Notes: generated by a model from the sequence alone, not told the origin. 40,000 bases of DNA from Clostridia bacterium (GCA_045657465.1 JAZOTD010000036.1:11372-51371); one strand, 5' to 3'. Positions 2,834-34,703 are shown, counted from the stretch's first letter. Numbers and translations are program-made.

Positions 2834-3577
2834 ATGGAATCTAAAAAAAAGAAAAAGATTATCCTTATTGTTTCATTAGTATCAATTTTTTTAATTGTCG
2901 CTGTTTTAGGAACGTTTTTTACTATAAAAGCAATTAATAATAAAGACAACGACAGCAGCACCCCAGCAACGAATGTGAATAGTTCACTTGGGGTTGATGA
3001 GAGACTATTTGAAGCACATAAGGCTATTATGAACGAAGAAGTTTCTGCTGATTTCAACGGAAACTACAAATTTAAAACTGTTAGTTCAATTATCTTTAAT
3101 AAAGATTTAAACAAAGAACAAATTGAGAAAATCTGTGCATTGCAAGGAACCAACGACCCTAACGGTCTTCAAGGCAAAATTCTTGAAACAAAAAAAGCCG
3201 AAGCAACCCAAAACAATGAAGTTATTGTTTTAAAAGCAAAAGACGGCTACGGTTCTTACACAAGAAGTTACAATTCAAAAGATGTTATTGAATACGGAAG
3301 ATATTTTGGAAACAATGATCTTTCAGAAATAAGCATCTATGATTATGCAACAAAAGACTACTTCTCTTTATATGACATGTCACTTACAAGCATAAAAGAA
3401 GCCGACATCACTTCTTTAAACTCAAGTGCAAACACACATAAAGACAAGCTCTATTTATATAAAAAGGTTTACAGCAAAGAAAATCCAAATCTTATTTTAT
3501 TTACAATCACTTATGTATATGAGTTGATACCTGCTGAACCACCTATTTCAGATTCAGAATTAGATTTTGTTATTTAA
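2834..3577 (+). CDS. Membrane-anchored or secreted protein of unknown function
   Basis: N-terminal Lys-rich segment followed by a hydrophobic helix (KKKKIILIVSLVSIFLIVAVLGTFF), then a polar ectodomain. No motif recognised. Confidence 0.6.
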   Translation: MESKKKKKIILIVSLVSIFLIVAVLGTFFTIKAINNKDNDSSTPATNVNSSLGVDERLFEAHKAIMNEEVSADFNGNYKFKTVSSIIFNKDLNKEQIEKICALQGTNDPNGLQGKILETKKAEATQNNEVIVLKAKDGYGSYTRSYNSKDVIEYGRYFGNNDLSEISIYDYATKDYFSLYDMSLTSIKEADITSLNSSANTHKDKLYLYKKVYSKENPNLILFTITYVYELIPAEPPISDSELDFVI

Positions 3578-3599: not shown

Positions 3600-4616
3600 A
3601 TGAAGAAGCTTATCAAAAATATTTCAAAAGCATTATGTTTATTATTTGTGTTTTCATTTTCAATAATTTCAATTGTTGGATGTGGAAACAAAGACAATTC
3701 AAACGATAAAAAAGCAAACAACACCGCGTCAACAACAATCGGTGGAGATATCAACAACTCAGCTGACAATGTAAACCAAGATGATATAACCGCTGAAGAA
3801 GTTGCTCTTAATGGCATTTACAAATATGCCCGCCCTGTTATCTATGCTGATACATATTGGACTGTTTCAAATGAAGAGATTTTCGATTATTTCGATACAA
3901 CAGACATCAATGGTGTCTACAATGCTCTTTTAAAATTGAACTTTTTAGATATTGTAAACTCAAATATCTATGAACTTGACGGCGACACAATTGAAACAAT
4001 GGTTTATTTCAACGAAGAAAAATTCATCTATATTGAATTTACTGGAACTTATTACAAGACCGGTGAAGAATATAACATCAATGAACTCACAAGCAAAATT
4101 GAAATAATTGATGAAGAAAATTTTATTGTTCACGCTCCATTTTCTTACGTAAATGATTCAAATGAAGTTGTTGAAACACCTATCATCGTAAAAATTCCAT
4201 ACGTAAAAGTTGCAGATTCAGAAAACACTTTAGTTGGAAATATTTATACCTATCAAACAGGTTCTGCAAATATTATTATTTCAAATCAATCAACAATTAC
4301 AAAAGAAGAAGCTTTCTTAAAGCTTGCAGAGCTTTTTGAAATCAACACAGATGCAGACATTTCTGCAGAAGTTGAAGACATGTTCGCAAACTTTGATATT
4401 CAAATCAATGAAGTTCTTTCAAATGTTACTTTCCTTTGCAAATATGATGACACATTTAGATTTTCAAGCATTTCAAACGCAACATCAACAATCGATGGAA
4501 TGACAATTTCACTCACAAGCAGAAGCATCAATGTTGCAACTGGCATTGAAACATTAAACCTTGAAATCATGCTTGATGAAAACACAACACTCACATTTTC
4601 TTATCAAGCAGCTTAA
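3600..4616 (+). CDS. Putative lipoprotein of unknown function
   Basis: Signal peptide with a lipobox-like sequence SIVGC followed by GNKDNS. SD AAGGAG lies 7 nt upstream. The mature part starts with an NG.YKY motif similar to the upstream gene product. Confidence 0.65.
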   Translation: MKKLIKNISKALCLLFVFSFSIISIVGCGNKDNSNDKKANNTASTTIGGDINNSADNVNQDDITAEEVALNGIYKYARPVIYADTYWTVSNEEIFDYFDTTDINGVYNALLKLNFLDIVNSNIYELDGDTIETMVYFNEEKFIYIEFTGTYYKTGEEYNINELTSKIEIIDEENFIVHAPFSYVNDSNEVVETPIIVKIPYVKVADSENTLVGNIYTYQTGSANIIISNQSTITKEEAFLKLAELFEINTDADISAEVEDMFANFDIQINEVLSNVTFLCKYDDTFRFSSISNATSTIDGMTISLTSRSINVATGIETLNLEIMLDENTTLTFSYQAA

Positions 4617-4779: not shown

Positions 4780-6300
4780 TTATAAAATTTCAAGTTTCTT
4801 ATGGAATGTCTTTTCGAAATCTCTGCCAACATCCATACCCCTTTGAATTTCAAATGTTGCATCAGCAACAGTAACAGTTTTCATAATAACTGAATCACCC
4901 AAGATGTCACAGTTAATATCAACAATAACACTGTTTTTGGTTCTATCAAAACATTCAGCCAATCTCAAGATGACACCAAGTTTCTTTGTTGCATCAATGT
5001 CTTCAACTGTCAAAATACCATTATATTTTGCCCAGTCAGCCATTTTTATGTCACCACCTGAATGAAGCGATGCCACAAAACTTGCCAAAATCAATTCTCT
5101 GTGAGTCAACCCATAAATTTCACTGTTAAGAACAACTTCAAATGAGTGACTAGCGTGTTTGTTATAGCTAATTCTCTTACCTACATCGTGCATATAAGAT
5201 GCAACTCTGAGCACCTTTACATATCCACGTGGAAGTTTGTGAAGAACTCTAAGTTGTTTAAAGAGCAGCATTGACAAGTTGTAAACTTGTTCATTGTGTT
5301 TTGTTGAATTTGCTTCATATTCAGAAGTTTGAGCCATAACTGAGAAACCAACAATGTCTGAATTTGGTTTTTCAATAGTAGTTGGTGTAACTGAATTGAA
5401 AAGCAAACCTTCAACCAGTGATCTAGTTGTGATTGTGATTGTTTCTCTTTCAAATTCTTCTGAAATAGCTTTGATGATTTGCACTGCATATGCAAAGATA
5501 TCCGCTCTTGATTCATGCAAACCTTTAAGTCTCTTGTTTTCATTCAATTCAAGCGCTTTGAGTTGTTTTAAAATGTGATCGATATTTGCACTCTTCAAAA
5601 CATAACCATCATCTTTGTCAAGTGGATATTTTGTGTAAATTCTGTCCATACTTGAAAGATCTTCAAAATAAACACCATTGCCCACAAACACATATTCTTG
5701 GTCAATTGTTTTAAGCCAATCAAAGTCTGAAAGTTGTGATTTAACATACTTAACAACTTTTTCAAAGGCTTCCTCTTTTCCAAGTTTTGAAACAGGATAC
5801 ATGTCAACTAAAGTTTTTGGACCAACCGGAATAAACGCCTGGTTCAAAATATTTCTTCTGTTATAATGAATCAAGTGAATGTTATCAGTTCCAACATTTA
5901 CAATTAAACCTTTTGGAATATCATAACTATTCATTACACCAGTATAGATTGCAGCATTTTGTTCTTCAGGTGAAAGCACCGAAAATCTAAAGCCACAAGT
6001 CACAAACACTTCATCAAAGAAGCTGTAAATATTCATTGGTTTTGAATCTTTAATAAAACTTGCAATTGCGATGGTTTTTGTAACTTCAAACATATCACAA
6101 ATTTTTCTAAAATTCTTTAATGTGCTAATGATAGATGAGATTTGATTTTTCTTTAAGAAATGATCATCGTCCATTTCAAGACCAAACTTGATTGGCTCAA
6201 CCTCAACATCACAAATTGAAAAATAATTATCTTGAACAACATTCGCAATAACCAATTTTGCGGAATAAGTTTCAACAAGAACAACAGCAATTTTATCCAC
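4780..6300 (-). CDS. Ppx/GppA-family phosphatase with C-terminal HD domain
   Basis: 506 aa. The N-terminal half has a Ppx/GppA (ASKHA) layout. The C-terminal part has an HD signature (ASYMHDVGKRISYNKHASHS...SLHSGG). Confidence 0.75.
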   Translation of the reverse strand: MDKIAVVLVETYSAKLVIANVVQDNYFSICDVEVEPIKFGLEMDDDHFLKKNQISSIISTLKNFRKICDMFEVTKTIAIASFIKDSKPMNIYSFFDEVFVTCGFRFSVLSPEEQNAAIYTGVMNSYDIPKGLIVNVGTDNIHLIHYNRRNILNQAFIPVGPKTLVDMYPVSKLGKEEAFEKVVKYVKSQLSDFDWLKTIDQEYVFVGNGVYFEDLSSMDRIYTKYPLDKDDGYVLKSANIDHILKQLKALELNENKRLKGLHESRADIFAYAVQIIKAISEEFERETITITTRSLVEGLLFNSVTPTTIEKPNSDIVGFSVMAQTSEYEANSTKHNEQVYNLSMLLFKQLRVLHKLPRGYVKVLRVASYMHDVGKRISYNKHASHSFEVVLNSEIYGLTHRELILASFVASLHSGGDIKMADWAKYNGILTVEDIDATKKLGVILRLAECFDRTKNSVIVDINCDILGDSVIMKTVTVADATFEIQRGMDVGRDFEKTFHKKLEIL

Positions 6301-6433: not shown

Positions 6434-6467
6434 AAAATAGGTTGACATCAAATCAACCTATTTTTTT
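6434..6467 (-). terminator. Terminator of the rnf-like operon
   Basis: Stem TAGGTTGA (6438-6445) pairs with TCAACCTA (6453-6460). It is flanked by A- and T-runs and lies immediately after the rnfB stop (6466-6468). Confidence 0.6.
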
Positions 6468-7248
6468 ATAGTCTTGAAATTACGTGAGTTGGACAAGCCG
6501 CAACACACTTTCCACACTTAATACATTTTTCTGCATCAATCTTTGGCATGCCACCAACCATAGTAATTGCACCTGATGGACAAGCCACAACACACGCTTC
6601 ACAATGTGTGCAAGCAACTTCGCAATTTCTTGTTACAACTGAATCATTTGATGAATTGCTGCAAACAACTTCAACAAATTTCTTTGCAGGAATCATTGAA
6701 ATTAGCTCATTTGGACAAGCCCCAACACATTCTCCACAACCAACGCATCTTTCTTTGTCAACAACTGCACAGCCCTTTTTAGATATGCTTATTGCCCCAT
6801 AAACACAGGCTTTAGCACAATCTCCACAACCAAGACATGCAAATTGACAATGTTTATCACCAGAATGTTCCAAGTTTTTGCTGGCACAGGTTTGATCACC
6901 AACATAATGATATTTAGTTCCGCAATCACAACCACCTTTACATCTAACAAATGCAACACTGTTAAATCTAACCTTGCGTTCTTTCTTTAGAACTTGTCTA
7001 GCTCTCAAATAGTTTTTTCCAACGAAATATGGACACATGCTCATAATTGTTTTGCCTTTTGTTAAATCATCAGCAAACTTTGCACAATTAGGTCTTCCAC
7101 ATTTTCCACAATCTAAATTAGGCAACAATTCACGAACAACTTCTGCCGTTTTGTCTAATTTTTTGTTCTTATTCGTAACAACAACCATAATCACTATTGC
7201 AAGCAACAAGAAAACAATTGAGCCTGAATAAACAATAATTTTTAACAT
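6466..7248 (-). CDS. rnfB: RnfB-like polyferredoxin subunit
   Basis: N-terminal TM helix, then the RnfB-type Fe-S domain LPNLDCGKCGRPNCAKFADDL...CP, then several CxxCxxCxxxCP 4Fe-4S motifs (CVGCGECVGACP, CTHCEACVVACP, CIKCGKCVAACP). SD AAGGAG lies 5 nt upstream. Confidence 0.85.
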   Translation of the reverse strand: MLKIIVYSGSIVFLLLAIVIMVVVTNKNKKLDKTAEVVRELLPNLDCGKCGRPNCAKFADDLTKGKTIMSMCPYFVGKNYLRARQVLKKERKVRFNSVAFVRCKGGCDCGTKYHYVGDQTCASKNLEHSGDKHCQFACLGCGDCAKACVYGAISISKKGCAVVDKERCVGCGECVGACPNELISMIPAKKFVEVVCSNSSNDSVVTRNCEVACTHCEACVVACPSGAITMVGGMPKIDAEKCIKCGKCVAACPTHVISRL

Positions 7249-7257
7249 AGCAACTCC

Positions 7258-7833
7258 TTAAAACATTAATCCTGCGTAATGTAATAAAATTGAAAATATA
7301 GCAAGCAAAAACAATCTAGATGGAACATTTCTAAACGCTGAGTTTATATATGATCTGTTCACTGATTCAGTAAAGAATCCAACAAGCACACTCACAACCA
7401 AAACAGAAACAACAATGGCAATAATTGACATTGCAAATTCTGCAATTGGCATGCTCATATCGATTGTAAAAATCACTGAAAACGTAAATGACGCATCCAT
7501 AACATATGAAAATGAACTTTCATATAAATAATGTTTGAATGTTGAGATTTTTGACCAAATATGATTAACCAAAAGATTATATGTGCCAACAAACACAACC
7601 GCAACGCTCGCACTTATATATTCTAAATTAAATGGTTTGTAAACATATGTGTTCAACACATATGTTGCAAAACAACATAGAATGATTCCCACAACTAAAA
7701 AGACTGATTCCAAAAGCCTAAATGACTTATACATTTTTTCTCTTTGGAACAAAACAGCACCGGTTCCGTTAGAAACAACAATATTGCTTTTCAAACCATA
7801 TAAAACCAAATACGATAATAAAATTTGCAACAT
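7258..7833 (-). CDS. rnfA: RnfA-like integral membrane subunit (Rnf-Nqr family), divergent
   Basis: 191 aa with about 6 TM segments. Its position between the rnfE-like gene and rnfB matches canonical gene order. The C-terminal NVPSRLFLLAIFSILLHYAGLMF resembles the RnfA/NqrE C-terminus. Its start overlaps the rnfE stop as TAATG. Confidence 0.55.
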   Translation of the reverse strand: MLQILLSYLVLYGLKSNIVVSNGTGAVLFQREKMYKSFRLLESVFLVVGIILCCFATYVLNTYVYKPFNLEYISASVAVVFVGTYNLLVNHIWSKISTFKHYLYESSFSYVMDASFTFSVIFTIDMSMPIAEFAMSIIAIVVSVLVVSVLVGFFTESVNRSYINSAFRNVPSRLFLLAIFSILLHYAGLMF

Positions 7834-8774
7834 TATTCATTATCCTCCTTTGGTTTTTTATTGAATACTTTTTCTACCTTTGCACCTTTAGCATTCTTTT
7901 TCTTCTTACCTTTCTTTGTCGCAGGTTCTTCAGGTTCAACTTCTTTAACTTCTTCTGCAGGTTTTTCGCTAGCAGTCATTTCTTCTGGCGGCTTGTCAGT
8001 GATTTCATTCATATCAACCACTTCGTTAGCACTTTCCTTTTCGTTGATTTCTTCAACTTTTTCACCATCAATCTTATTTGTTTCAATTTGATTTGCAAGA
8101 AGTCTTTGACGTCTTAAATTGTCATATTGGAAAACTTTTTCATTTCTAATCTTTTTCAATATCTTTTGATATTCAATTTGTTTTTTCGTAACTTTATTGG
8201 CAATAGCCTTATGAATAACCTCAGCAAGGAATGCAATAATACCCATCCATAACAAGTTAAACACTTGAGTTCTGCAGAATGCATGACCAGTAAATCCAAA
8301 CAATTGTCTTTCAAAAACTGTTCCATAAGCTAAAAATTCTTTAAACACACTATACACAAAGCCCATTAACGCAAACACAAACATAGCTCTCAAAACTTTA
8401 TACAAATAGTTTTTAGCAACCGCTTTTGTGTTGATATAAATGATATCAATACTCAAGATTGTTGTAGCAATAACTGACAAAAATCCTTCTTCGTGAACAT
8501 GCACATGAAGTCCAAAAAGTTCATATTTTTCAATAACAAAATCTAAAAGCGTCACAATAAACACTGACAATATTGCAGTCACAAACACTTTAACCGAACG
8601 ACTAAAGAATTTGTTAAACACCAAGCACACCAGTGCAGATATTAAATAACAAATACATGTAGCAATAATGAAATATATCGCATAGTTTGAATGAGCCATA
8701 ACAAACATTAGTGGACATAACGCCAAAATTGCGATATGCACAAAGCTCATTTCAATATTAGTTTTTAAATGCAT
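7833..8774 (-). CDS. rnfE: RnfE-like integral membrane subunit with a long charged C-terminal tail
   Basis: The N-terminus AILALCPLMFV matches the RnfE/NqrD G(L/I)CP motif, and about 6 TM segments follow. I place the start at the ATG at 8774 (track M4), because SD GGAGGTG (8781-8787) lies 6 nt upstream. Track residues 196-316 form a K/E-rich low-complexity tail. Confidence 0.6.
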   Translation of the reverse strand: MHLKTNIEMSFVHIAILALCPLMFVMAHSNYAIYFIIATCICYLISALVCLVFNKFFSRSVKVFVTAILSVFIVTLLDFVIEKYELFGLHVHVHEEGFLSVIATTILSIDIIYINTKAVAKNYLYKVLRAMFVFALMGFVYSVFKEFLAYGTVFERQLFGFTGHAFCRTQVFNLLWMGIIAFLAEVIHKAIANKVTKKQIEYQKILKKIRNEKVFQYDNLRRQRLLANQIETNKIDGEKVEEINEKESANEVVDMNEITDKPPEEMTASEKPAEEVKEVEPEEPATKKGKKKKNAKGAKVEKVFNKKPKEDNE

Positions 8775-9687
8775 TTCTAACACCTCCTAACGCCAAAGGC
8801 TTAAGAACTAAATATTTGTCCATTATAGGAACAAGCATATTCATAAACAAAGCAACTGCAAAGATTGAATTTTCTCCAAGCTTTCCAGTGCTCCAAACAA
8901 GTGCAGAAAGCACACCAAATAAAAGTGAATATAAAATCTTGCCAATAAACGTGTTTGGTGATGTGTTAGGATCAGTAATCATAAACACTGACACGAAAAT
9001 AAACGAACCTGAAAACATATTCATGACAGTTTCTTCAAGTCCACCAAGCATCATCCCAGTAACAAAATAACCAATCACTGCAAGTAGTGGAAGTTTAAAA
9101 TCAACCACACCTGAATAAACCAAGAATGCATAACAAATAACCAAGATAATCACACAAGTGGTTCCAATTCCACCAACACTCTCACCCACAAGCAAGTTTG
9201 TAAGTGTGTTAGTTCCACCAAGTGCAATCGATGTCATTTGTTCGCCATTAAGTGTGATTTGATAAAACTCAGAAGCAACCATGCTTGAAATAACACCAGT
9301 CATACATCTTCCCACAAGTGCAGGATTAAACTTGTTTCTTCCAAGCCCACCGAATGCCATCTTTGCAACAAATATTGAAACAAAAGCACTAATCATAACA
9401 AAATGCCAAGGAATTCCAATAGGCATCGTAAGTGCCAGAATAAAACCTGTTACAACACAAGAAAAATTATCAACATAAAATTTCTTTTTTGCGATAAGGT
9501 TAAACAATCCTTCAAAAACCAAGCAAGAAACAACCCCAACAGCAACAATTAACAATGCTTTAATTCCAAAAAATAACGTTCCATAAATTGCAGGCAACAA
9601 CAACGCCACTGCCACATACAAAAACATCTTATTTGTATCATTACCACTACGAACAAATGGAGCGTGTGAAACTACAAACTTTTCCAT
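8758..9687 (-). CDS. rnfD: RnfD-like subunit (NqrB/RnfD family)
   Basis: Motifs read: VSHAPF (compare SSPH), FGGLGRNKFNPALVGR, MITDPNTSP, FAVALFMNMLVPIMD. SD GGAGGTG lies 7 nt upstream. The start overlaps the rnfC stop as TAATG. Confidence 0.8.
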   Translation of the reverse strand: MEKFVVSHAPFVRSGNDTNKMFLYVAVALLLPAIYGTLFFGIKALLIVAVGVVSCLVFEGLFNLIAKKKFYVDNFSCVVTGFILALTMPIGIPWHFVMISAFVSIFVAKMAFGGLGRNKFNPALVGRCMTGVISSMVASEFYQITLNGEQMTSIALGGTNTLTNLLVGESVGGIGTTCVIILVICYAFLVYSGVVDFKLPLLAVIGYFVTGMMLGGLEETVMNMFSGSFIFVSVFMITDPNTSPNTFIGKILYSLLFGVLSALVWSTGKLGENSIFAVALFMNMLVPIMDKYLVLKPLALGGVRNAFKN

Positions 9688-11000
9688 TACTTAACACCTC
9701 CATGTTTTTTATCATAAAATTTTGCTGCAGCAATTCTTTGTGTCAAATAACGTCTTGAAGGACACACATATGAACAGCAACCGCATTCGATACAAGTTTG
9801 AACATTAAGTTTTTTAATCTCGTCAACATTTTCTCTTAAATAAGCTTCATCAATAAGCTTTGGATTTAAAAATACCGGACAAACATTTATGCACTTTCCA
9901 CAAGAAATACATGGAAGTTCTTTTTCTGGAGTAAGCACATCATATTTTAAAAGCAACAATGTGTTTGTCATCAAAGAAACTGAAATGTCTTTGTTGTATT
10001 GTGCTGTGCCTGATAAAACATTTCCATCAACAACTTGACAGTCAGCTTGCGAATCTTCAACACCTGCATATTCAATCAGTTTGTCATAAGATGTGCCGAT
10101 AGGAACAATATAGTTACCCTTTCTAACAATATTGTCACCATCAACAGTAACAATCTTGCTTGTAACTGGCTTGTTAAATTCAACGGCACGACAAAAATCG
10201 AAACAAGACTCAGCTGTTTCAATGGTGATTCCCGCCTCTAAGAAAGATGTGGTTTTATTTATATTCTTTTTACAAATAAGTTTTGCAACAATGTAAGGAT
10301 TGTCAAATGGATACTTGTTTGGAATAAACTTAATTTTGAAGTCATAATTCTTTTTTGTTTCAAGAATATGCTTTTTTACTTTTGCAGCAAGCTTGTAGTT
10401 TGCTTCCGTGAAAACAAATGTGATGTATGACGCACCAGTAATATTCATAAAATACTTGGCACCATTAACAACTTCTTCAAGTCTATAGTTGACCAAAGTT
10501 TGATTGATTGAATTGTTTGGATCAGTGCTGTCCATCATAATAACTAATGTCTTATAGGTTCTTGCACCCACATAAGCATACTTTAGGTATGTTGGCATAG
10601 TTGAAATTGTGTCAACCAAACCAGCTTCACGAAGTCTGGTAATAAGTGCGGTGTCTCCAATTGAATCAATTTCTGGCAAGTCTTCAACTTCTTCTTTCGA
10701 ATCATTCATAATCAAAACATGCTTGCAAAGCTCACCATGTGAATTCATTTTTTGCAAGATGTTTAAAACCTTTCCACTGCATGGTGAAAAGATGTTCACA
10801 CCGAACTTTCCTGATGGTTTTGCAATCAATGAACCCTGCTTTACAACATCACCAACGTGAACAACAGGCTCAGCTTCTGCTATGTTTTTTAACTTTAGTG
10901 GCACGTTATAAAATTCAGCTGCTGGCATTTGAGACAAATCAACACCAACGCTCATTTTCTTCATGTATGGATATATACCCTTAAAACTAATTAATCCCAC
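9687..11000 (-). CDS. rnfC: RnfC-like subunit (divergent; retains two C-terminal 4Fe-4S motifs)
   Basis: The N-terminus FKGIYPY corresponds to RnfC FKGG(V/I)HP. A barrel-sandwich-like region follows (VHVGDVVKQGSLIA...SPCSGKV). The C-terminus has CISCGKCINVCP and CIECGCCSYVCP. The track starts at GTG 11012. I prefer GTG 11000 because GAGG lies 6 nt upstream. Confidence 0.7.
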   Translation of the reverse strand: MGLISFKGIYPYMKKMSVGVDLSQMPAAEFYNVPLKLKNIAEAEPVVHVGDVVKQGSLIAKPSGKFGVNIFSPCSGKVLNILQKMNSHGELCKHVLIMNDSKEEVEDLPEIDSIGDTALITRLREAGLVDTISTMPTYLKYAYVGARTYKTLVIMMDSTDPNNSINQTLVNYRLEEVVNGAKYFMNITGASYITFVFTEANYKLAAKVKKHILETKKNYDFKIKFIPNKYPFDNPYIVAKLICKKNINKTTSFLEAGITIETAESCFDFCRAVEFNKPVTSKIVTVDGDNIVRKGNYIVPIGTSYDKLIEYAGVEDSQADCQVVDGNVLSGTAQYNKDISVSLMTNTLLLLKYDVLTPEKELPCISCGKCINVCPVFLNPKLIDEAYLRENVDEIKKLNVQTCIECGCCSYVCPSRRYLTQRIAAAKFYDKKHGGVK

Positions 11001-11029
11001 AATAAACCTCACTTAATATATACAAAAAT

Positions 11030-11058
11030 ATTGTAACAAATTATGGGTTTATTGTAAA
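11030..11058 (-). promoter_or_regulatory. Candidate sigma-A promoter of the rnf-like operon
   Basis: Minus strand reads TTTACA (plus 11053-11058), a 17-nt spacer, then TGtTACAAT (plus 11030-11038), which is an extended -10. Confidence 0.45.
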
Positions 11059-11081: not shown

Positions 11082-11462
11082 TTATTGTTTTTTATTTTTC
11101 ATTGCAAGAATGGTTTTTATAGCATAAAAAATACCAACCAAAATAATGAAACTTGCAAACAAAATTCTAAGCAAATTTGAACTAGTTTTAAGCGCAAAAA
11201 GACTCGCAAAAAAAGCCACTATCGTGGCAGGAATTGAAATGCAAAAAAACGCCATGAAATCAATCAATTTATTTTTAATATAAATCACAAAACAAACACT
11301 CGCCAAAACAACAAAACAGATCACATTTGTTGACTGGCAAATAATCTGCTCAACTCCAAAAAACAAACTTAAAAGCGGAATCAAAAAAGTTCCACCACCC
11401 ATACCCATTCCAGCAAAAATTCCCGAAAATGTAGATATTAATAAAATTAGCAAAATCTGCAC
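11082..11462 (-). CDS. Half-size TSUP (TauE/SafE-like) membrane protein, second of a pair
   Basis: 126 aa with 4 TM segments and the motif GMGMGGGTFLIPLL. GTG start with AAGGAG 6 nt upstream. Confidence 0.7.
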   Translation of the reverse strand: MQILLILLISTFSGIFAGMGMGGGTFLIPLLSLFFGVEQIICQSTNVICFVVLASVCFVIYIKNKLIDFMAFFCISIPATIVAFFASLFALKTSSNLLRILFASFIILVGIFYAIKTILAMKNKKQ

Positions 11463-11483: not shown

Positions 11484-11529
11484 TTTTTATATTGTTTTTC
11501 AATGTTTTTTAATGCTTTTTGCGTTTTTT
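11484..11529 (-). other. Array of five helically phased A-tracts (T-tracts on the plus strand)
   Basis: T5-T6 runs at 11484-88, 11495-99, 11505-10, 11516-20 and 11524-29. Start spacings are 11, 10, 11 and 8 bp. The array fills the 65-nt gap between the two TSUP half genes. Confidence 0.6.
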
Positions 11530-11908
11530 AAAACACAATCATGCAAACGCCAGCCACAATTAACACCACTGAAAAGATTAAATCTATAACATTATTTTTT
11601 AATTTTTTCAATAATTTTGTTCCAACCAAGCTTCCAATTACACTCCCTATCCCACACACCAAAACAAGCTTAAAATCAACTTCATTTTTAATAAAATAAA
11701 ACACTGAACTTGACACACACATAAACAGCACACAAGCAAGTGTTGTGGCATGTGCAATCTTAGAATCTTGTTTTGAAACATAGCCAATCATGGGCACAAG
11801 CAAAAGCCCACCACCCGCTCCAAAAAAACCATTAATGAACCCAGCAACCAGTCCAACCGCCACTAGCTCCAAAATTTTTAATAATTCTTTCTTGTTTTTA
11901 TTATCCAC
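11528..11908 (-). CDS. Half-size TSUP (TauE/SafE-like) membrane protein, first of a pair
   Basis: 126 aa with 4 TM segments and the motif GFFGAGGGLLLVPMI. Confidence 0.7.
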   Translation of the reverse strand: MDNKNKKELLKILELVAVGLVAGFINGFFGAGGGLLLVPMIGYVSKQDSKIAHATTLACVLFMCVSSSVFYFIKNEVDFKLVLVCGIGSVIGSLVGTKLLKKLKNNVIDLIFSVVLIVAGVCMIVF

Positions 11909-12095: not shown

Positions 12096-15000
12096 ATGAA
12101 GAAATTATCAAAATCATACAGCAAGAACAAAAAGTCAATACTAAGCGCATTCCTTGCATCAGTGTTGGCATTTTCATTTAACTACTCTCCAATTTCAATG
12201 ATTAGCAATCTTGTTAAGACTTCAAATGCTTACAAGTCTTCATCATTGCAATCTTATTATGGCGAAACAACTTCAACTTCTGAATCAAAAGTGAAAGCGT
12301 ATTACCCTGAAGAACTCGCAGAGTATTTTTCTCAAAGCAAAACAAATTTCAACATCGAAACTTATTACAATTCAAGATTCGATGACTTGTTCAAAGGTTA
12401 TGCAAATGACTTTTTGCTAAGCGGAAAAGTGCCTTTTGTTAATCCTGACGGTTCAGACAACCCTGATGCAATGACAAACTATTCAACTCTTGTTAGAAAC
12501 TTCTTGTCAAACAAAAAAGTTTCAACTCTTTATGAATACTTTGAAAACAACAAAACTGACATCAAGGCAGACCTAAACATTTCAGACTTTAGAACATATG
12601 TTGAATATTTCGTATCTCACGAAATCACTTGGACAATCTCTGATGCTGAAACAGGAAAAATCCCAGCAGCATTCACAACCGCCCCAACAAAAACTTATTT
12701 CTACTGTTCATTTGCAAACTTCTTAACCAACACACAAGAAAGTGTTAAATCAACAGATACAAATGGTTTTGACAACCTTCCAGAAGATTACACAGAATCA
12801 CAATTCTATCAATTCTCTCTTTCTTATAAAAGACTCAAAGATGCTGTTGATGCTGAAATCGTTAAAACAATGGCAATCTATTCATATGATGGTCAAACAC
12901 AAAGCAACACCGTTGCAGGCATCGTGGCTGAAGGTGCTCCTGTTTCAAAAGAGTTCTATTATAAAGATAATGAATACACTCCACAAAACACACCAAAAGT
13001 TTCTTATTCACAAAAAACCGTTAACAAAGTAAAAAATAGAATTGTATATTACTTTGGAACTCTTCCAACATTGCCAAGCGGATACACTAGACCAGATCAT
13101 CTTGAAGAATTAGACATAAACAAATTTTATGAAAACCCTCTTCAATATAGATTAACCCTTGACGACGGCTTAGACGACAATGAAGAATATGGTTACATTC
13201 CTGGGATCAACACATTCTATAAATATGAATCAATTCCATTTGCAACCACAAAAAATCAATATGACTTATATGTCGTTGATGACTCTGTTACAGATTTAGA
13301 AAAAACAACTTATGCATCACTTGGCATCACAGTGTTAACTTCTGACGACATCGACAACGACACACAAAACGCTGAAGACCTTCAAGACCTTGGGATTAGC
13401 AAAGCTGATTCAAAATCTTACTTCAAGGTTCCTTATGATTCAACTGCTGAACATGGTGACATCTATTTCAACCAAATCTTCAGTTTCATTGCTTCATCTG
13501 CAACTAAAAACAAAGTTTACAAAATTTTAGAAGAATTGCAAAAAATTGATGCAATACATGGTCTTTATTTAAAATATAAAAACAATGCTGATAATATCGT
13601 TTATTATGACCCTGCTTTAAATGGTGGCAAATCAAAAGAAACTTTCATTGCTGACGCAAAGAAAGAAGAAAACGGCATCTATGACCATTTGGTTATTGAA
13701 TTTGATTACAATAGTTTGTCTGCTGAAGAAAAAGAAAGCTATTGCATCATTCCAACTTCATTCTCTGGTCACAACGTTGGTAGTTACACTCTCTATTTTG
13801 AAAAGACAAAAACTTTCTATCAAGAAACTAACACAACAAACTATGATGGTTACGTAACAAAAGACACACCTGTTGACCCATATGAATATTCATCTCACCT
13901 GATTCCAACAGATTCTTACAAAATGGCTGACTATGGCAAAGAAATTTTTGCTCTAGTTGAAAATAAAGACACAACTGCCAAAGTTACAATTGACTCAACT
14001 GAATATTTTACCGTTGATCAATTTGAACTTGATAAACCTGAAAATAGAAATTTCTATATTGAAGTTCCTGAATACACCTACAACAAAATTTATGGTGCAA
14101 ACAACAGAACCTACAAACTCTATTTCAAACATGAAGCAAAAGCAACAAGACAACTCTATGTTGTTGATGACACTAAATCTGCTTCAACAAACGAGGTTTA
14201 CAAAAATTTATATTACAACGTTATCACTTCTGAAGAATTGAAGCTTAACAAACTCAATTATGTTGCCGTTGAATCAACTGATGCAAACTACAACAAAAAC
14301 TTTAAGCTTTATTATAGATATGATGAAGACACAAAATTTTCTGAACTCTTTGTTCAAAATGAATTTAGAAACACCGGCAGTGACGATAATTCAAAACACA
14401 ACGCCAACGCTGTTTACATTGTCGATGAAGATGTTAAGCCTGATGAACTTGCAAAATATAAAGTAAATTTGTTTAATGTTGTTTCAACAGAAGAATTCAA
14501 CCAAAACAAACACTTCTATGTTTTAATTCAACAAGGTGACGAAAACTATAACTCACAATACACAAAGCTTTATTACAAATATAAAACAGACACAACAAAA
14601 GCTAGTGAAAAAGTTATCTATATCTACACTTCTGGAAAGAGCGACAAATATCAAACTTTCTACAAAAACAACGCTGGTTATGTTGCTTCTGATTATGAGC
14701 TCATTCCATCAACAGACACTGAAAACTATGTTGAAGGTACAAACCTTTATTATAAAAAGAAAAGAGTTCAATCAGCAGTTAATAAGCCACAAATGACTTA
14801 TTATTATTATCAAAACTCTTCAACCGTTTCACTCAAGGCAAACAAATATTATGCTATTTCATTCTATGTTTACACAAACGGTTATTATGATGAAGCAAAG
14901 ACAATGCCTATTGAAGCATCATTCTATTTGTCAGATTCAAATGGCTACGTGTCAAACATTTCCCTTGAACACATCTCATCTCAAGGCAAATGGACAAAAT

Positions 15001-18000
15001 ATTATATGTTCGTTTCAACAGATCTCAACTCTGCTTCTGCTGTTTCACTTAAGATGTATCTTGGTGACAAAACAAGCATCTTGGGTTCTAGATATGAAGA
15101 CAACAAAGACACAATCAAAACTGTTAGTGGCGTTGTTCTCTTTGATAACATTAGAGTTACAACAATTAACTACACAGACTTCACAAAACGCAGAGTTGAT
15201 GACAAAGACATCACCGTTGAAAAATATTTAGAAGAATCTGATTCTCCTGTTGTTCTTGACGTTGTTGTTGCAAACGATGATGCAAGATTCAACACAACAA
15301 ACGTGTTTGACAACAGAGCCAACTCAACTCTTGTTATTGGAGACAATGACAATTCAACAACTTGGGACGAAGGCAAAGATTTTGATGACATGTTCAACTT
15401 TGACGATATCTATAACACAAACAAAGATTCAAACGTGTTCACAGATATTCCTGATGTAACCGAAAAAACTGATGGCTACTCACCAAAAACTACAATGTGG
15501 TCATATTATATTGGCCGTGATGTTTCTGGTCTTGGCAACAGCAGAAAACTTGAACAATATCAAGAAGCCTATATGTCAGGCAACCTTTCAGTAAGTCTCG
15601 TTGATGAAGAAACAGAAATCAGCAAAACAATCACTCCTGTTGACAAAGACGAAGATAAGAAAGAAGAAGATAAAAAAGAAGAAGACAAAACTGAAAACAA
15701 AGAAACAATTGCTTCAACATTTAATCTAGCAAACCGTGCATTGAAACTTGAAAACACAAACAGTATTATTTCTCTTGGCATCACATCAAACGCATTTAAG
15801 ATTGAACAATTTAGATATTACAAAATTACAGTTTGGGTGTTTGCTCCAGACAAAGAAGCAACTGCTTCAATCACACTTAACTCTGTGGTTGAAACCGCAT
15901 CAACTCCAACTTATGGAACTCTTTTAACAAAGACAATTTCTCTTGATGCATGCTATGCTTCATACACAACAGCTCCAACAAACGAATATGGTTGGATTCC
16001 TTGTTCATTCTATATTGAAGGAAATGCACTTCATGACCAACTTTGCTATTTGGTTCTTTCAGCTGGAAAAGACTCAACTGTTTACTTCGACAATATCTCT
16101 GTTGAAAATGTTTCATCATCTGCTTATGACACAGTAAGTTCAGATTCAGACAACACAACAAATTACTTGTCACTCACCAACTCATCATCAGTTATTTCTA
16201 ATGGTATCACAAATGGTTACTTTAACAACATCACTTTCAAAAATGATTACAAAGAACCAGACATGACAACACCTAGAACTGCAAAGAGCTGGACTGTTGA
16301 CTCAAATAGTTCAAGTGCTGTGGTTGCAGGAGTTGTTCCAACAAACAAAACCTACACTTCGCTCACTGACAACTTCTATAAAAAATATAACAAAGATGGC
16401 GACGACGTAATCATTCCATATTCAAATGGATTTGATGAAAACAATTCATACAACAACGTGTTTGCAATTTATGCCCCTTCAACAATGAACAACCCTATTG
16501 AAGGCTCAACACAAACTGGCGTAAACACAACTAATATGTATAAGCTTTATTCTTCTTCAATTAGCTTGTCTGCAAACGGCGTTTATGAAATTTCATTTGA
16601 TTTCTTCAAAGGATATAACTTCACTGGATCAATGATTGCAAACCTTTATTATGGTTCAAAAGATTCAGCAAAAATTATTTCATCATTTAAAATTGATGCA
16701 AACAACCTTGATGAATATGCTTGGGAAACCTTCAAATTCTATGTTGCTTCGTCATACTCAACCGCAAGTGTATATCTTGAAATTGGTGTAACTGGTGCAA
16801 CTGGAACATGTTTCTTTAAAGATGCTCTCAAGGTAACATCTTCAAAATTACTCACCGATTTGCGTGACGAAATTATCAATGTAAATGAAAACTTGTCAGG
16901 CACAGCTGATATGTTTAACAAACAATCTCTTCAAAACTATAGATTTGTAGACTTTGCAATGTTATCATCATCAACTCACAGCCTTGAATTCAATAAACAA
17001 AACAACACATACAACGTTTCTGAATACAAGAACGAACTCATTAACACCAACAAATACACCGTTGGAAAATCTGGAGTTGCTGTTGCAACATTCTTCGCTG
17101 AGGAAGATTCAACAGTTACATATTCAGTAACAATCAACAAAATAACATATTATATTGGTGAAGATGCAAGTTCTGACACAGGCTATTCACTCTACAAATA
17201 TTCTTGCTGCTGTGAAGATGACAAAGTAACTGAAATCGACGGCTCACCTGTTGTAGTTGAAAACACCAAAAAAGTTGTTGTTGGAAAAGATGACAAAACA
17301 ACTGATTATGCATCAACCAAAACAGAAAAGAAAAACTATCTCTACACTTTTGAAAAAGATGTTGAAATCAATAATGTAATGATTCCAGCTACTGAACTTA
17401 CAAACAACTATTCAGATAGTGTCATGATTTTAGCTAACAGCTATTCAACAGATTTCATTTCACTCACACCTGCTTACACAACAACATTAAGCAAGACATC
17501 ATTCTATGTGTTGAAAATATATGTAAAAACAAGTGACTTTGCAGATGAAGACACTGGATTGAACATCAATATTGCTTCAATCTCAACTTCTTGGAAAAAC
17601 ATCAACACAACAATTCTTGATGAAGGAAAGGCTGATGAAAATGGATTCGTTTGCTATCAAGTAGGTATTAAAACAGCTGACAGTTCAATAGCAAGTTTTG
17701 GTGTAACCCTTTCTCTTGGTTCTGAAAAATCAACATGCAAAGGCTATGCAATCATTGCAGACATCGAACTTGAAAAATATGCAACTGAAGCAGACCTTGA
17801 ACACTACATCTCAACAGTTGAAGACGATGAAATCACCGTTAAAAAATATTACTCAAATGCAAAAGATGGTTCTTCTTCAAACACTTCAAATGAAAAGAAA
17901 GAAGACGCTGAAGAAGTTTCAAGATGGGCAACCTTCTTCTATATCTTCTCTTCACTTCTTTTAGCTTTGGTTCTTGGCATGGCACTTGTTGCTGTATTTG

Positions 18001-18149
18001 TTAAAAAACACCCTGTTAAACACAGAGTAAAAGCAACAAACGACCACGAAAAAGATATTGAACTTCTTAGACCTAAGAAATCAGACATCTTTGAACCAAC
18101 AAGCAAATCTTCAAATGAAGAAGATTCTGGAAACGATGGCATTTTGTAA
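12096..18149 (+). CDS. Giant (2017 aa) secreted, C-terminally membrane-anchored surface protein with CBM-like modules
   Basis: Uninterrupted 6 kb ORF. The N-terminal signal-like segment is KKSILSAFLASVLAFSF...SNA. Tyr/Asn/Thr-rich repeats and four beta-sandwich-like modules follow. The C-terminal TM helix WATFFYIFSSLLLALVLGMALVAVFV is followed by a basic/acidic tail. No LPXTG motif. Confidence 0.85.
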   Translation: MKKLSKSYSKNKKSILSAFLASVLAFSFNYSPISMISNLVKTSNAYKSSSLQSYYGETTSTSESKVKAYYPEELAEYFSQSKTNFNIETYYNSRFDDLFKGYANDFLLSGKVPFVNPDGSDNPDAMTNYSTLVRNFLSNKKVSTLYEYFENNKTDIKADLNISDFRTYVEYFVSHEITWTISDAETGKIPAAFTTAPTKTYFYCSFANFLTNTQESVKSTDTNGFDNLPEDYTESQFYQFSLSYKRLKDAVDAEIVKTMAIYSYDGQTQSNTVAGIVAEGAPVSKEFYYKDNEYTPQNTPKVSYSQKTVNKVKNRIVYYFGTLPTLPSGYTRPDHLEELDINKFYENPLQYRLTLDDGLDDNEEYGYIPGINTFYKYESIPFATTKNQYDLYVVDDSVTDLEKTTYASLGITVLTSDDIDNDTQNAEDLQDLGISKADSKSYFKVPYDSTAEHGDIYFNQIFSFIASSATKNKVYKILEELQKIDAIHGLYLKYKNNADNIVYYDPALNGGKSKETFIADAKKEENGIYDHLVIEFDYNSLSAEEKESYCIIPTSFSGHNVGSYTLYFEKTKTFYQETNTTNYDGYVTKDTPVDPYEYSSHLIPTDSYKMADYGKEIFALVENKDTTAKVTIDSTEYFTVDQFELDKPENRNFYIEVPEYTYNKIYGANNRTYKLYFKHEAKATRQLYVVDDTKSASTNEVYKNLYYNVITSEELKLNKLNYVAVESTDANYNKNFKLYYRYDEDTKFSELFVQNEFRNTGSDDNSKHNANAVYIVDEDVKPDELAKYKVNLFNVVSTEEFNQNKHFYVLIQQGDENYNSQYTKLYYKYKTDTTKASEKVIYIYTSGKSDKYQTFYKNNAGYVASDYELIPSTDTENYVEGTNLYYKKKRVQSAVNKPQMTYYYYQNSSTVSLKANKYYAISFYVYTNGYYDEAKTMPIEASFYLSDSNGYVSNISLEHISSQGKWTKYYMFVSTDLNSASAVSLKMYLGDKTSILGSRYEDNKDTIKTVSGVVLFDNIRVTTINYTDFTKRRVDDKDITVEKYLEESDSPVVLDVVVANDDARFNTTNVFDNRANSTLVIGDNDNSTTWDEGKDFDDMFNFDDIYNTNKDSNVFTDIPDVTEKTDGYSPKTTMWSYYIGRDVSGLGNSRKLEQYQEAYMSGNLSVSLVDEETEISKTITPVDKDEDKKEEDKKEEDKTENKETIASTFNLANRALKLENTNSIISLGITSNAFKIEQFRYYKITVWVFAPDKEATASITLNSVVETASTPTYGTLLTKTISLDACYASYTTAPTNEYGWIPCSFYIEGNALHDQLCYLVLSAGKDSTVYFDNISVENVSSSAYDTVSSDSDNTTNYLSLTNSSSVISNGITNGYFNNITFKNDYKEPDMTTPRTAKSWTVDSNSSSAVVAGVVPTNKTYTSLTDNFYKKYNKDGDDVIIPYSNGFDENNSYNNVFAIYAPSTMNNPIEGSTQTGVNTTNMYKLYSSSISLSANGVYEISFDFFKGYNFTGSMIANLYYGSKDSAKIISSFKIDANNLDEYAWETFKFYVASSYSTASVYLEIGVTGATGTCFFKDALKVTSSKLLTDLRDEIINVNENLSGTADMFNKQSLQNYRFVDFAMLSSSTHSLEFNKQNNTYNVSEYKNELINTNKYTVGKSGVAVATFFAEEDSTVTYSVTINKITYYIGEDASSDTGYSLYKYSCCCEDDKVTEIDGSPVVVENTKKVVVGKDDKTTDYASTKTEKKNYLYTFEKDVEINNVMIPATELTNNYSDSVMILANSYSTDFISLTPAYTTTLSKTSFYVLKIYVKTSDFADEDTGLNINIASISTSWKNINTTILDEGKADENGFVCYQVGIKTADSSIASFGVTLSLGSEKSTCKGYAIIADIELEKYATEADLEHYISTVEDDEITVKKYYSNAKDGSSSNTSNEKKEDAEEVSRWATFFYIFSSLLLALVLGMALVAVFVKKHPVKHRVKATNDHEKDIELLRPKKSDIFEPTSKSSNEEDSGNDGIL
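13257..14762 (+). repeat. At least six degenerate tandem protein repeats (about 50-85 aa each) inside the giant CDS
   Basis: Units start near aa 388, 497, 615, 685, 770 and 838. Each ends in (Y/N)(K/T)LY(Y/F)(K/R/E). The best pair is aa 687-745 against aa 773-833: LYVVDD..Y..L.YNVITSEEL..NK..YV....D.NYN...KLYYRY versus VYIVDE..Y..L.FNVVSTEEF..NK..YV....D.NYN...KLYYKY. Confidence 0.7.
14808..15167 (+). other. CBM4_9-like beta-sandwich module 1 (aa 905-1024)
   Basis: Pattern read: SLKANKYYAISFYVYT ... ASFYLSD ... WTKYYMFVST..ASAVSLKMYLG ... VLFDNIRV. Confidence 0.5.
15642..15704 (+). repeat. Low-complexity D/E/K linker (DKDEDKKEEDKKEEDKTENKE)
   Basis: Read directly; purine-rich GAA/GAT/AAA codon run. 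Confidence 0.8.
15759..16112 (+). other. CBM4_9-like module 2 (aa 1222-1339)
   Basis: Pattern read: FKIEQFRYYKITVWVFA ... ASITLNS ... WIPCSFYIEG ... CYLVLSAGKDSTVYFDNISV. Confidence 0.5.
16188..16838 (+). other. CBM4_9-like module 3 (aa 1365-1581)
   Basis: Begins SNGITNGYFNN...AKSWTV, comparable to the NGgFE...W module start. Continues ISLSANGVYEISFDFF ... WETFKFYVAS..ASVYLEIGV.GATGTCFFKDALKV. Confidence 0.5.
17430..17774 (+). other. CBM4_9-like module 4 (aa 1779-1893)
   Basis: Pattern read: TTTLSKTSFYVLKIYVKT ... GLNINIAS ... FVCYQVGIKT..IASFGVTLSLG...GYAIIADIEL. Confidence 0.45.
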
Positions 18150-28713: not shown

Positions 28714-29349
28714 TTATCCATTTTGATTTTTGCTAAAACAAGGCTTTCCTAAAAGCAATGTTCGAAGCTTGTCAATGCCAAGGTCTTCTTTTTTGAAATT
28801 AAACCCATATCCATTAAGTTCATCAATTAGCATTGCTCTTTGCACTTCAACATCTTCAACCCCATAATAATCAGGATTGTCATAATAAAGCACCAAACCA
28901 ACATTGTCAATATCTTGAATTTGAATCATGCTTTTCATATCGTCAATTTTGTATTGATAATCTCTTTTAAATGTGTCAAAAATCAAATACCAACCTGCGC
29001 CTTCAATTTCCGCTTGAATCTGCTTAAACTCGTCCATATCACATTCAAAACGGTCTTCACCAGCACGGTCATAAGCATTAAAGTTTTCAAAACGCATAGA
29101 AACATCATATTTTCCATTCCATTTTTTGCCACCAACACCATTGCCTATTCTAAAACGCACACATGCATTTTTGATTTGATTTTCCGTCATCTTCTCAAGT
29201 TCAGCAAATTTCTTGTTGGTCCAATAAAGATCATGCGTTTCGCAATTAAACACATTAACCGCACCCACATCATCTAAAATTTTTTCATATATTTCAGGCT
29301 CTCCTTCTAAAAGCATTCCTACTTCAACAATGGTTTTTTCTTCCATAAC
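28714..29349 (-). CDS. Cytoplasmic protein of unknown function (weak CYTH-like pattern)
   Basis: I use the ATG at 29349 (MEEKTIVEV...), which has AAGGAG 7 nt upstream. The track's longer start (29397) lies inside the predicted promoter. Confidence 0.6.
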   Translation of the reverse strand, partial: VMEEKTIVEVGMLLEGEPEIYEKILDDVGAVNVFNCETHDLYWTNKKFAELEKMTENQIKNACVRFRIGNGVGGKKWNGKYDVSMRFENFNAYDRAGEDRFECDMDEFKQIQAEIEGAGWYLIFDTFKRDYQYKIDDMKSMIQIQDIDNVGLVLYYDNPDYYGVEDVEVQRAMLIDELNGYGFNFKKEDLGIDKLRTLLLGKPCFSKNQNG

Positions 29350-29368
29350 AAATCTCCTTAACACTTGT

Positions 29369-29397
29369 ATTATAAAAAAATTGCGAAAACAACGCAA
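29369..29397 (-). promoter_or_regulatory. Sigma-A-type promoter of the hyp-nudix-uvrB-uvrA gene string, with an embedded palindrome
   Basis: Minus strand reads TTGCGT (plus 29392-29397), a 17-nt spacer, then TATAAT (plus 29369-29374). The inverted repeat TTGCG-N7-CGCAA (29381-29397) overlaps the -35 and the spacer. Confidence 0.55.
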
Positions 29398-32949: not shown

Positions 32950-33198
32950 ATAAATTGCGTTGAAAAAGAAGAGTAAACTTGAAGGTTGCTTATAGAGAGT
33001 TCCGCTTGGTGGAAAGGAACAGCAAACGCAAATCGAAGGCACTTTGGAGCAATCATTAAAAAAGAGTGAGTGTCACATGACACTAATAAGGGTGGAACCA
33101 CGGGTCTAATCTCTCGCCCCTTAGCAAAACTGAATAAATCACATATGTTTTATTCCCTTTTGCTATCGCGTGCGAAAAAGATTAGGCCTTTTGTTTTG
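32950..33198 (+). promoter_or_regulatory. Glycine-specific T-box riboswitch leader (short glyQS type, no Stem II)
   Basis: Stem I starts TTGCGTTGAAAAAGAAGAGTA (32955-). AGAGAG box at 32994-32999. Distal GGTGGAAAGG. Specifier GAA-GGC-A with GGC at 33038-33040. Stem III is GTGTCAcaTGACAC. T-box core AATAAGGGTGGAACCACGG lies at 33085-33103, with UGGA in the bulge. Long terminator helix CTAATCT/TCGC (33106-33117) pairs with GCGA/AGATTAG (33172-33185), followed by CTTTTGTTTT. Confidence 0.85.
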
Positions 33199-33232
33199 GC
33201 TAAAAAACAAAATAAATTTAGGAGAAACAAAT

Positions 33233-34669: not shown

Positions 34670-34703
34670 AAAGGTGTTATGCCAAACATAACACCTTATT
34701 TTT
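34670..34703. terminator. Bidirectional-looking hairpin terminator
   Basis: AAGGTGTTATG (34671-34681), loop CCAAA, then CATAACACCTT (34687-34697). T-runs follow on both strands. Confidence 0.6.

Follow-up and report, generated by a model that had tools for sequence, protein, structure and literature searches.

What is left of an Rnf complex when the subunit RnfG is missing, and can what is left still carry electrons from ferredoxin to nicotinamide adenine dinucleotide (NAD+)? The question is raised by a five-gene operon on the minus strand of a 40,000-nucleotide (nt) stretch of DNA from Clostridia bacterium (GCA_045657465.1, JAZOTD010000036.1:11372-51371), which is called the window below. 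An initial annotation had read it as an Rnf-like operon without rnfG, and had proposed an Rnf-derived complex with a different electron path or a non-redox role. The comparisons described here support that proposal at the level of sequence. The operon descends from a clostridial-type Rnf and has lost RnfG together with sites on which the canonical electron path depends. Purifying selection acts strongly on it throughout a broad group of uncultured gut Clostridia.

The list of open reading frames (ORFs) and inspection of the sequence give five collinear, translationally coupled ORFs between 6466 and 11000 on the minus strand, in the order C-D-E-A-B. They are named here, with a prime, after their Rnf counterparts, and are set out below in amino acids (aa) together with the flanking expression signals.

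rnfC', 9687-11000, minus strand: 437 aa from GTG 11000; RnfC_N barrel, remodelled NuoF-like domain and two [4Fe-4S] motifs
rnfD', 8758-9687, minus strand: 309 aa
rnfE', 7833-8774, minus strand: 313 aa from ATG 8774, as in relatives; RnfE-like core of six transmembrane helices and a C-terminal extension
rnfA', 7258-7833, minus strand: 191 aa; strongly diverged RnfA homologue in which no cysteine is conserved
rnfB', 6466-7248, minus strand: 260 aa; N-terminal transmembrane helix, FeS (B8/FdI) domain and polyferredoxin region
Candidate sigma-70-type promoter, 11030-11058, minus strand: TTTACA, 17-nt spacer, TACAAT and an upstream TG; 10 of 12 matches
Intrinsic-terminator-like hairpin, 6434-6464, both strands: 13-bp stem, then a T-rich tail (AAATTTTGTA), directly past the rnfB' stop codon

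The first ORF is listed as 9687-11012, but GTG 11000 is the likelier start of rnfC' because the resulting 437 aa match the relatives. The junctions consist of TAATG overlaps at 9687 and 7833, an overlap of 17 nt between D and E (8758-8774) and a gap of 9 nt between A and B (7249-7257). Shine-Dalgarno sequences are present 5' of D and E (GGAGGTG in both cases), A (AAGGAGG), B (AAGGAG) and C (GTGAGG). The ORF list and the sequence thus bear out the five coupled genes, their junctions and their strong ribosome-binding sites as first annotated. One candidate promoter and one terminator had been noted as well. The hairpin was found, and so was the promoter match, which sits in the 69 nt that separate rnfC' from the TauE gene upstream; however, 24 promoter-like matches were counted in this AT-rich region against 24.9 expected from shuffled sequence. 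Since such matches are equally common in the shuffles, the promoter at 11030-11058 is plausible by its position only.

Profile hidden Markov models confirmed the kinship of the proteins, in that RnfC_N, Complex1_51K, NQR2_RnfD_RnfE and Rnf-Nqr were matched on C, D and E, and A was reached by a bridging profile. RnfC' matched the Pfam families RnfC_N, Complex1_51K and Fer4, and its best solved structure was 7zc6_C (3e-51); against the NCBIfam model TIGR01945 it scored 246.0 with a cutoff of 245.95, that is, at threshold. RnfD' matched Pfam NQR2_RnfD_RnfE with 226 bits and 7zc6_D at 1e-38, and RnfB' matched Pfam FeS, several Fer4 families and 7zc6_B (5e-42). RnfE' barely passed Pfam Rnf-Nqr (25.2 bits against a cutoff of 23.8). 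A profile built from ten members, namely the nine E proteins of the close family and that of a sister-clade contig (L020, described below), matched RnfE (7zc6_E, 1.7e-11; 9eri_E, 7.6e-10) and NqrD (5.7e-9). The divergence of this subunit is considerable: the RnfE proteins of Clostridium and Escherichia coli are 50% identical, whereas RnfE' of the window is 24% identical to either. NCBIfam scores fell under the cutoff for rnfD (157 against 207), rnfE (19 against 213) and rnfB (63.9 against 68.7, TIGR01944). The five proteins therefore do not all reach the curated NCBIfam/TIGRFAM thresholds of their families, while the Pfam thresholds were passed by C, D and B, and barely by E.

RnfA' is the most diverged of the five. 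Its sequence gave zero matches in Pfam and NCBIfam scans, and its family profile found 29 proteins only among 1.84 billion representatives and had no match in the PDB. Direct hhalign comparison of that profile with E. coli RsxA, to which RnfA' is 19% identical, and with the RnfE' family was not significant. The weakest matches of the family profile, P0203 and P0205 (E about 2.5e-4), belong to Pfam Rnf-Nqr. Once they are added, the resulting bridging profile matches RnfA over its full length (9eri_A, 5.6e-22; 7zc6_A, 1.7e-20) as well as NqrE (1.6e-7). For an AlphaFold model of RnfA' (predicted local distance difference test score 69), Foldseek ranks RnfA chains first, with a probability of about 1.0 and a TM-score of about 0.5. 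The evidence that the A-like protein is an RnfA homologue is thus indirect and convergent: the intermediates and the fold agree with its position, its size and a collinear alignment. Taken together, these matches establish the five proteins as counterparts, by homology, of RnfC, D, E, A and B, and the operon as a lineage-specific descendant of a clostridial-type Rnf.

There is no room for rnfG between D and E because D overlaps E by 17 nt; this had been stated at the outset and holds in the window and in every relative examined. Elsewhere, no Pfam match to FMN_bind or ApbE was found among the window ORFs of at least 110 aa, and no strict flavinylation motif in any window ORF of at least 100 aa. 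A tblastn search of 251 kb, made up of the window and 12 related loci, gave nothing better than E = 0.89 for rnfG or apbE; the four queries were RsxG and ApbE of E. coli, an RnfG of the clostridial type and a further FMN_bind protein. As a positive control, the same queries detect one another across phyla. The initial view that the RnfG flavin is obligatory in canonical Rnf agrees with published mutagenesis, in which RnfG T185A/Y113A and mutants of the AE1 cysteines lose all activity (PMC11889175).

Two candidates for RnfG in another guise were considered and rejected. An RnfG fused to another subunit would have to lie in the C-terminal tail of RnfE', the sole extra sequence in the operon, which has neither a Pfam match to FMN_bind nor tblastn similarity to RnfG. 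The giant surface protein encoded at 12096-18149 was considered as a stand-in flavoprotein; it contains one loose TGAT (residue 1566), which is kept only in the 93%-identical one of seven orthologues.

The departures from Rnf extend to the cofactor sites of the subunits that are present. Ligand sites were taken from the structures of the Clostridium tetanomorphum and Acetobacterium woodii complexes (PMC9588780; PMC11889175). The site alignments cover a close family of nine members. Four RnfC motifs are shared by C. tetanomorphum, a biogas metagenome-assembled genome (MAG; L014) and E. coli, and all four are replaced in 9 of 9 family members.

RnfC G[ML]GGAxFPT, replaced by D[TNS]-[IL]SxMP
RnfC NAAECEPY[IL]T, replaced by MDSTDPN (window residues 156-162)
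RnfC KYPxGxxKQL, replaced by KYP[FL]D[ND]PYI (window KYPFDNPYI, residues 229-237; C. tetanomorphum KYPQGAEKQL)
RnfC GGPxMG, replaced by [DEN]G[NS]xxxG

The replacement motifs are themselves invariant in the family. So are both CxxCxxCxxxCP [4Fe-4S] motifs of RnfC' (CISCGKCINVCP, residues 364-375, and CIECGCCSYVCP, residues 403-414). We take the lost loops to be those that bind flavin mononucleotide (FMN) and NADH, given the NuoF-like fold of RnfC (PMC9588780); on this assignment RnfC' has lost the canonical NuoF-like FMN/NAD(H) site.

In RnfD' the flavinylation loop LDG[VI][ST]xAT(153)PL is shortened and changed to [LIM]N[GE][ED]xxxS (window LNGEQMTS, residues 146-153). The motif recognised for flavinylation by ApbE is D-x-x-[ST]-G-A-[ST] (PMC12052999); it is absent from the RnfD' family, in which positions -3, -2 and -1 do not fit. 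The GETS motif that contains E185 has become an invariant GTTC and N90 has become T, and near-invariant cysteines are gained in GRC and GTTC. Other residues are invariant in the family: N121 of NKFNPA (N124 in C. tetanomorphum, N123 in A. woodii), R127 (equivalent to R130) and the Asp of TDPNTSP (D248 in C. tetanomorphum, D249 in A. woodii). In A. woodii RnfD, N123 and D249 are essential ligands of riboflavin (PMC11889175); N124 and D248 of C. tetanomorphum are the riboflavin and Na+ residues.

The intramembrane [2Fe-2S] cluster (AE1) is held by C25 and C113 of RnfA and by C26 and C109 of RnfE (PMC9588780). The equivalent of RnfE C26 (in LAxCP, window residue 20) is kept in 9 of 9 close-family members and in L020, and that of C109 is lost in the close family. 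RnfA' has neither of its two cluster cysteines, and its C25 and C113 columns hold V/L/I and A/S, respectively. One of the four cysteines is therefore retained, the other three columns being occupied by non-ligand residues in all close-family members. RnfB' has the transmembrane anchor, mobile single-cluster domain and polyferredoxin chain of its counterpart (Pfam FeS, Fer4); of the 26 aligned C. tetanomorphum cysteine columns, 24 never vary within the family, whose invariant cysteines number 27 in total. The erosion of cofactor motifs noted in the initial annotation is accordingly real and selective. It affects the RnfC loops, the RnfD motif and three of the four [2Fe-2S] cysteines, but spares the [4Fe-4S] sites of RnfB and RnfC and the riboflavin ligands of RnfD.

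The family has also gained sequence, at the C-terminus of RnfE'.

rnfE' tail, 7836-8207, minus strand: residues 190-313; 110-125 aa in the family; canonical RnfE is without it
Tail motif, 8097-8150, minus strand: RnfE' residues 209-226, IRNEKVFQYDNLRRQRLL; consensus RNEKxFQYDxLRRxxLL

A conserved helix motif is followed by low-complexity sequence rich in K and E; the tail has no Pfam match, and the motif itself matches no family. All nine close-family members carry the motif almost unchanged, and the sister clade L020 lacks it. A cytoplasmic position of the tail is presumed, to judge from the basic residues past the last transmembrane helix and from the known topology of RnfE.

A survey of relatives found the same G-less order C-D-E-A-B at 10 related loci (L001, L002, L004-L007, L009, L011, L012 and L017) and in the sister clade L020; the contigs of the distant relatives P0189, P0194 and P0200 are too short to show G. 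The genome scan returned 3 loci only, and a metagenome scan with two sequences returned one. The 10 loci share their neighbours as well: a giant ORF of about 1,750-2,070 aa, two half-size TauE genes, Ppx/GppA and MreB. Sources of the relatives include human gut and goat cecum. The RnfA-like protein is represented by 57 clusters (45-97% identity) and the RnfD homologue by at least 120 clusters at 90% identity, with lengths of 307-310 aa. In 11 genomes, at 44-97% identity, none of the five reading frames is interrupted. The ratio of non-synonymous to synonymous substitution rates (dN/dS, Nei-Gojobori) between the window and L017 is 0.031 for C, 0.089 for D, 0.046 for E, 0.050 for A and 0.026 for B, compared with 0.020 for MreB and 0.028 for Ppx; more distant pairs give 0.03-0.15. 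Because of the family matches, the synteny in 10 related loci and these dN/dS values, the operon is more than a chance arrangement. It had first been described as expressed rather than decaying, and its maintenance by selection is borne out: against the closest relative the values (0.03-0.09) are like those of MreB and Ppx.

A decaying operon, that is, Rnf remnants in a shrinking genome, is for that reason scarcely credible as an explanation. The eroded cofactor motifs, the very diverged RnfA and RnfE homologues and a longest contig of 1.17 Mb, which suggests small genomes, are what it has in its favour, but in the 11 genomes the frames are unbroken, the dN/dS values (0.03-0.15) are low, the replacement motifs are invariant, and the translational coupling and Shine-Dalgarno sites are preserved. 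An ordinary ferredoxin:NAD+ pump, with rnfG and apbE elsewhere in the genome, can be judged against the canonical path, which is U-shaped: electrons pass from ferredoxin through RnfB, the [2Fe-2S] cluster, the FMN of RnfG, the FMN of RnfD, riboflavin and RnfC to NAD+. Loss of AE1, B8, FMN-G or the ligands of riboflavin abolishes Fd:NAD+ activity in A. woodii (PMC11889175). As read from the alignments, this path is broken at four points here, so that the complex would be unable to run the ferredoxin-to-NAD+ route. The RnfD homologue does bear, from the NCBI pipeline, the name 'RnfABCDGE type electron transport complex subunit D', and the search for rnfG and apbE covered 251 kb of the window and related loci. 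However, RnfG, FMN_bind and ApbE were not found in those 251 kb, and even with RnfG supplied every member of the family would still be without the RnfC loops, three of the four [2Fe-2S] cysteines and the RnfD motif. In A. woodii, mutation of those centres leaves no activity (PMC11889175). We regard an ordinary pump as very improbable.

The reading that we favour, and stop just short of calling probable as a whole, is that C'D'E'A'B' is an electron relay built on a membrane scaffold. The tightest constraint falls on the cytoplasmic iron-sulfur subunits RnfB' and RnfC', and the riboflavin-binding Asn and Asp of RnfD' adjoin the RnfC cluster. Single-electron handling on the cytoplasmic face is suggested because the clusters of RnfB' and RnfC' and the riboflavin ligands are kept. 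Ferredoxin would deliver electrons to RnfB', and they would leave via RnfC', perhaps through riboflavin in RnfD'; the acceptor would be a partner that binds where the FMN/NAD+ site has given way to a new Asp-rich pocket. For the remodelled D'/E'/A' core we envisage the part of a membrane scaffold and possibly of a cation-binding element, with no transmembrane electron loop. Several points weigh against such a relay. In canonical Rnf the nearest clusters of RnfB and RnfC are more than 30 Å apart (PMC11889175), so that a cytoplasmic link from B to C would need a new docking mode. RnfD' may still carry a flavin: a family-invariant Ser in its loop stands at the canonical distance of six residues from the N found in place of D, and ApbE tolerates Ser, single substitutions of the Asp, Gly and Ala having only reduced flavinylation (PMC12052999). 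The region is moreover ambiguous, three alignments placing the RnfD' flavinylation loop differently. Finally, both the electron route and the partner are what we infer from the sequences.

The complex might instead be a redox-gated cation transporter or sensor, in which docking of the reduced B8 domain of RnfB' on the A'/E' dimer would switch the D'/E'/A' core between conformations, and so move or gate Na+/H+ or another cation, with no net electron flow. There is precedent in canonical Rnf, where reduction of B8 makes its docking on RnfA/E more stable and the affinity for Na+ depends on the redox state (PMC11889175). In the family the B8 cysteines persist, and RnfE has a basic residue at position R67 and an acidic one near E115; the RnfD N124 and D248 equivalents are kept, an invariant Asp stands beside the lost RnfA cysteine, and the membrane subunits are under purifying selection. 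However, a gated transporter leaves the strict conservation of the six-cluster RnfB chain and of the RnfC clusters unexplained, and the proposed Na+-path residues N90 and E185 of RnfD are replaced. We consider a transporter or sensor unlikely. Framed more broadly, as an Rnf/Nqr scaffold repurposed without transmembrane electron transfer, either as a redox-gated cation transporter or sensor or as a flavin-poor Fe-S relay to a new partner in the remodelled RnfC pocket, the proposal is one that we advance tentatively.

Relatives with other layouts show that the parts of the scaffold can vary separately. In L020, a human gut contig (positions 1-3947), the order is also C-D-E-A-B, with D running directly into E and no G. 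Both RnfE cysteines, the second RnfA cysteine and the 'VASPL' loop of RnfD are kept there, and RnfE is 227 aa long, without the conserved tail motif. L020 looks like an intermediate, in which G is lost and the other sites appear partly eroded. A different arrangement was seen at 325-4834 of L014 (GCA_012799205.1), and also in L015: RnfC, RnfD, an FMN_bind protein (RnfG), RnfE, a cysteine-less RnfA ('LGIYP') and a second FMN_bind protein of 146 aa. No RnfB gene was found next to the L014 cluster, and the genes downstream are unrelated. Evidently the modularity of the Rnf scaffold goes beyond what the six genes of the textbook suggest.

Upstream of rnfC' lies a pair of small genes.

TauE/TSUP pair, 11082-11462 and 11528-11908, minus strand: 126 aa each; Pfam TauE, C-terminal half of the profile only

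The pair is present upstream of rnfC' in 10 of the 10 related loci that cover the region, at a distance of 64-477 nt. It looks like a split transporter and is a conserved neighbour, not shown to be part of the unit. Divergent from this block, a 2,017-aa ORF (12096-18149, plus strand) has a signal-like N-terminus, a C-terminal transmembrane anchor and no Pfam match. Its position is kept in all related loci but its sequence evolves fast, at 33-49% identity; for RnfC', RnfD' and RnfB' the figure is 56-59% against L009, which is among the most distant relatives. The ORF probably encodes a surface protein specific to the lineage. On the other side, just past the rnf terminator, a Ppx/GppA phosphatase gene (4780-6300, minus strand) has a promoter-like site of its own at 6365-6337, and its product is far better conserved than those of the rnf genes, being 91-99% identical at the amino acid level in comparisons that give 47-98% for RnfA'-RnfD'.

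Further from the operon, a T-box leader (32951-33124, plus strand; Rfam RF00230, 104.9 bits) precedes 33170-34606, the gene of a class II aminoacyl-tRNA synthetase (478 aa; domains tRNA-synt_2b and HGTP_anticodon), an arrangement of the ordinary Firmicutes type of regulation. No Pfam match was obtained for five ORFs of 227-338 aa: 2834-3577 and 3600-4616 on the plus strand, which adjoin mreB in relatives too, and 28714-29397, 34703-35548 and 36994-37749 on the minus strand.

If the proposed working is correct, this would be the first natural Rnf-family complex to function without RnfG/NqrC, without the intramembrane [2Fe-2S] cluster and without NAD(H). Full-text literature searches found no published mention of a G-less rnf operon. 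A 2025 review describes the cofactors of the Rnf/Nqr membrane core as strictly conserved and RnfG/NqrC as the obligatory switch between the [2Fe-2S] cluster and the RnfD flavins (PMC12174285); the complex has shed elements so described and is still selected in gut Clostridia. One practical consequence is that metabolic reconstructions of these gut MAGs, if they follow the Rnf label given to the RnfD homologue, would credit the organisms with Fd:NAD+ coupling and with energy conservation by an ion-motive force, both of which are probably absent. The family also amounts to a natural dissection of Rnf, in which the RnfB and RnfC clusters, the RnfD riboflavin site and the A/E fold prove to have value without the electron loop, and which bears on where and how ions move in Rnf and Nqr.

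Among known systems, the clostridial complex RnfCDGEAB (7ZC6, 9ERI) is the one that each of the five proteins matches best in sequence, and its gene order is the same except for G. Both have the cluster chain of RnfB, the pair of [4Fe-4S] clusters in RnfC and the riboflavin ligands of RnfD. Clostridial Rnf, however, has RnfG, the canonical RnfC loops, the RnfD motif, E185, N90 and all four AE1 cysteines, of which the operon described here keeps one; the latter adds the RnfE tail of about 110-125 aa and, unlike clostridial Rnf, has an RnfA homologue too diverged for Pfam. The Na+-NQR offers a parallel in NqrA, an RnfC homologue that lost cofactors and yet stays in a working complex (PMC9588780, PMC12174285), and its membrane core is homologous. 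NqrA lost both FMN and Fe-S, whereas here the flavin/NADH site alone is lost. NQR keeps NqrC, covalent FMN on NqrB, the four-cysteine [2Fe-2S] site and NqrF, none of which the present operon keeps: no NqrF or FMN_bind was found in it, and its proteins score far below the cutoffs of the NCBIfam Nqr models. PrdC is an RnfC-family protein outside canonical Rnf; RnfC' matches its model TIGR04481 weakly (91.5 bits against a cutoff of 490), and PrdC stands alone, without a D-E-A-B membrane operon. E. coli RsxABCDGE is an Rnf homologue with a non-energy role, an indication that the scaffold can serve other redox roles (PMC12174285), but it keeps all six subunits and, in our alignments, all of the canonical motifs. 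Judged by the features that define the family, the operon is Rnf-derived and yet, as predicted from those features, is not an Rnf ferredoxin:NAD+ oxidoreductase.

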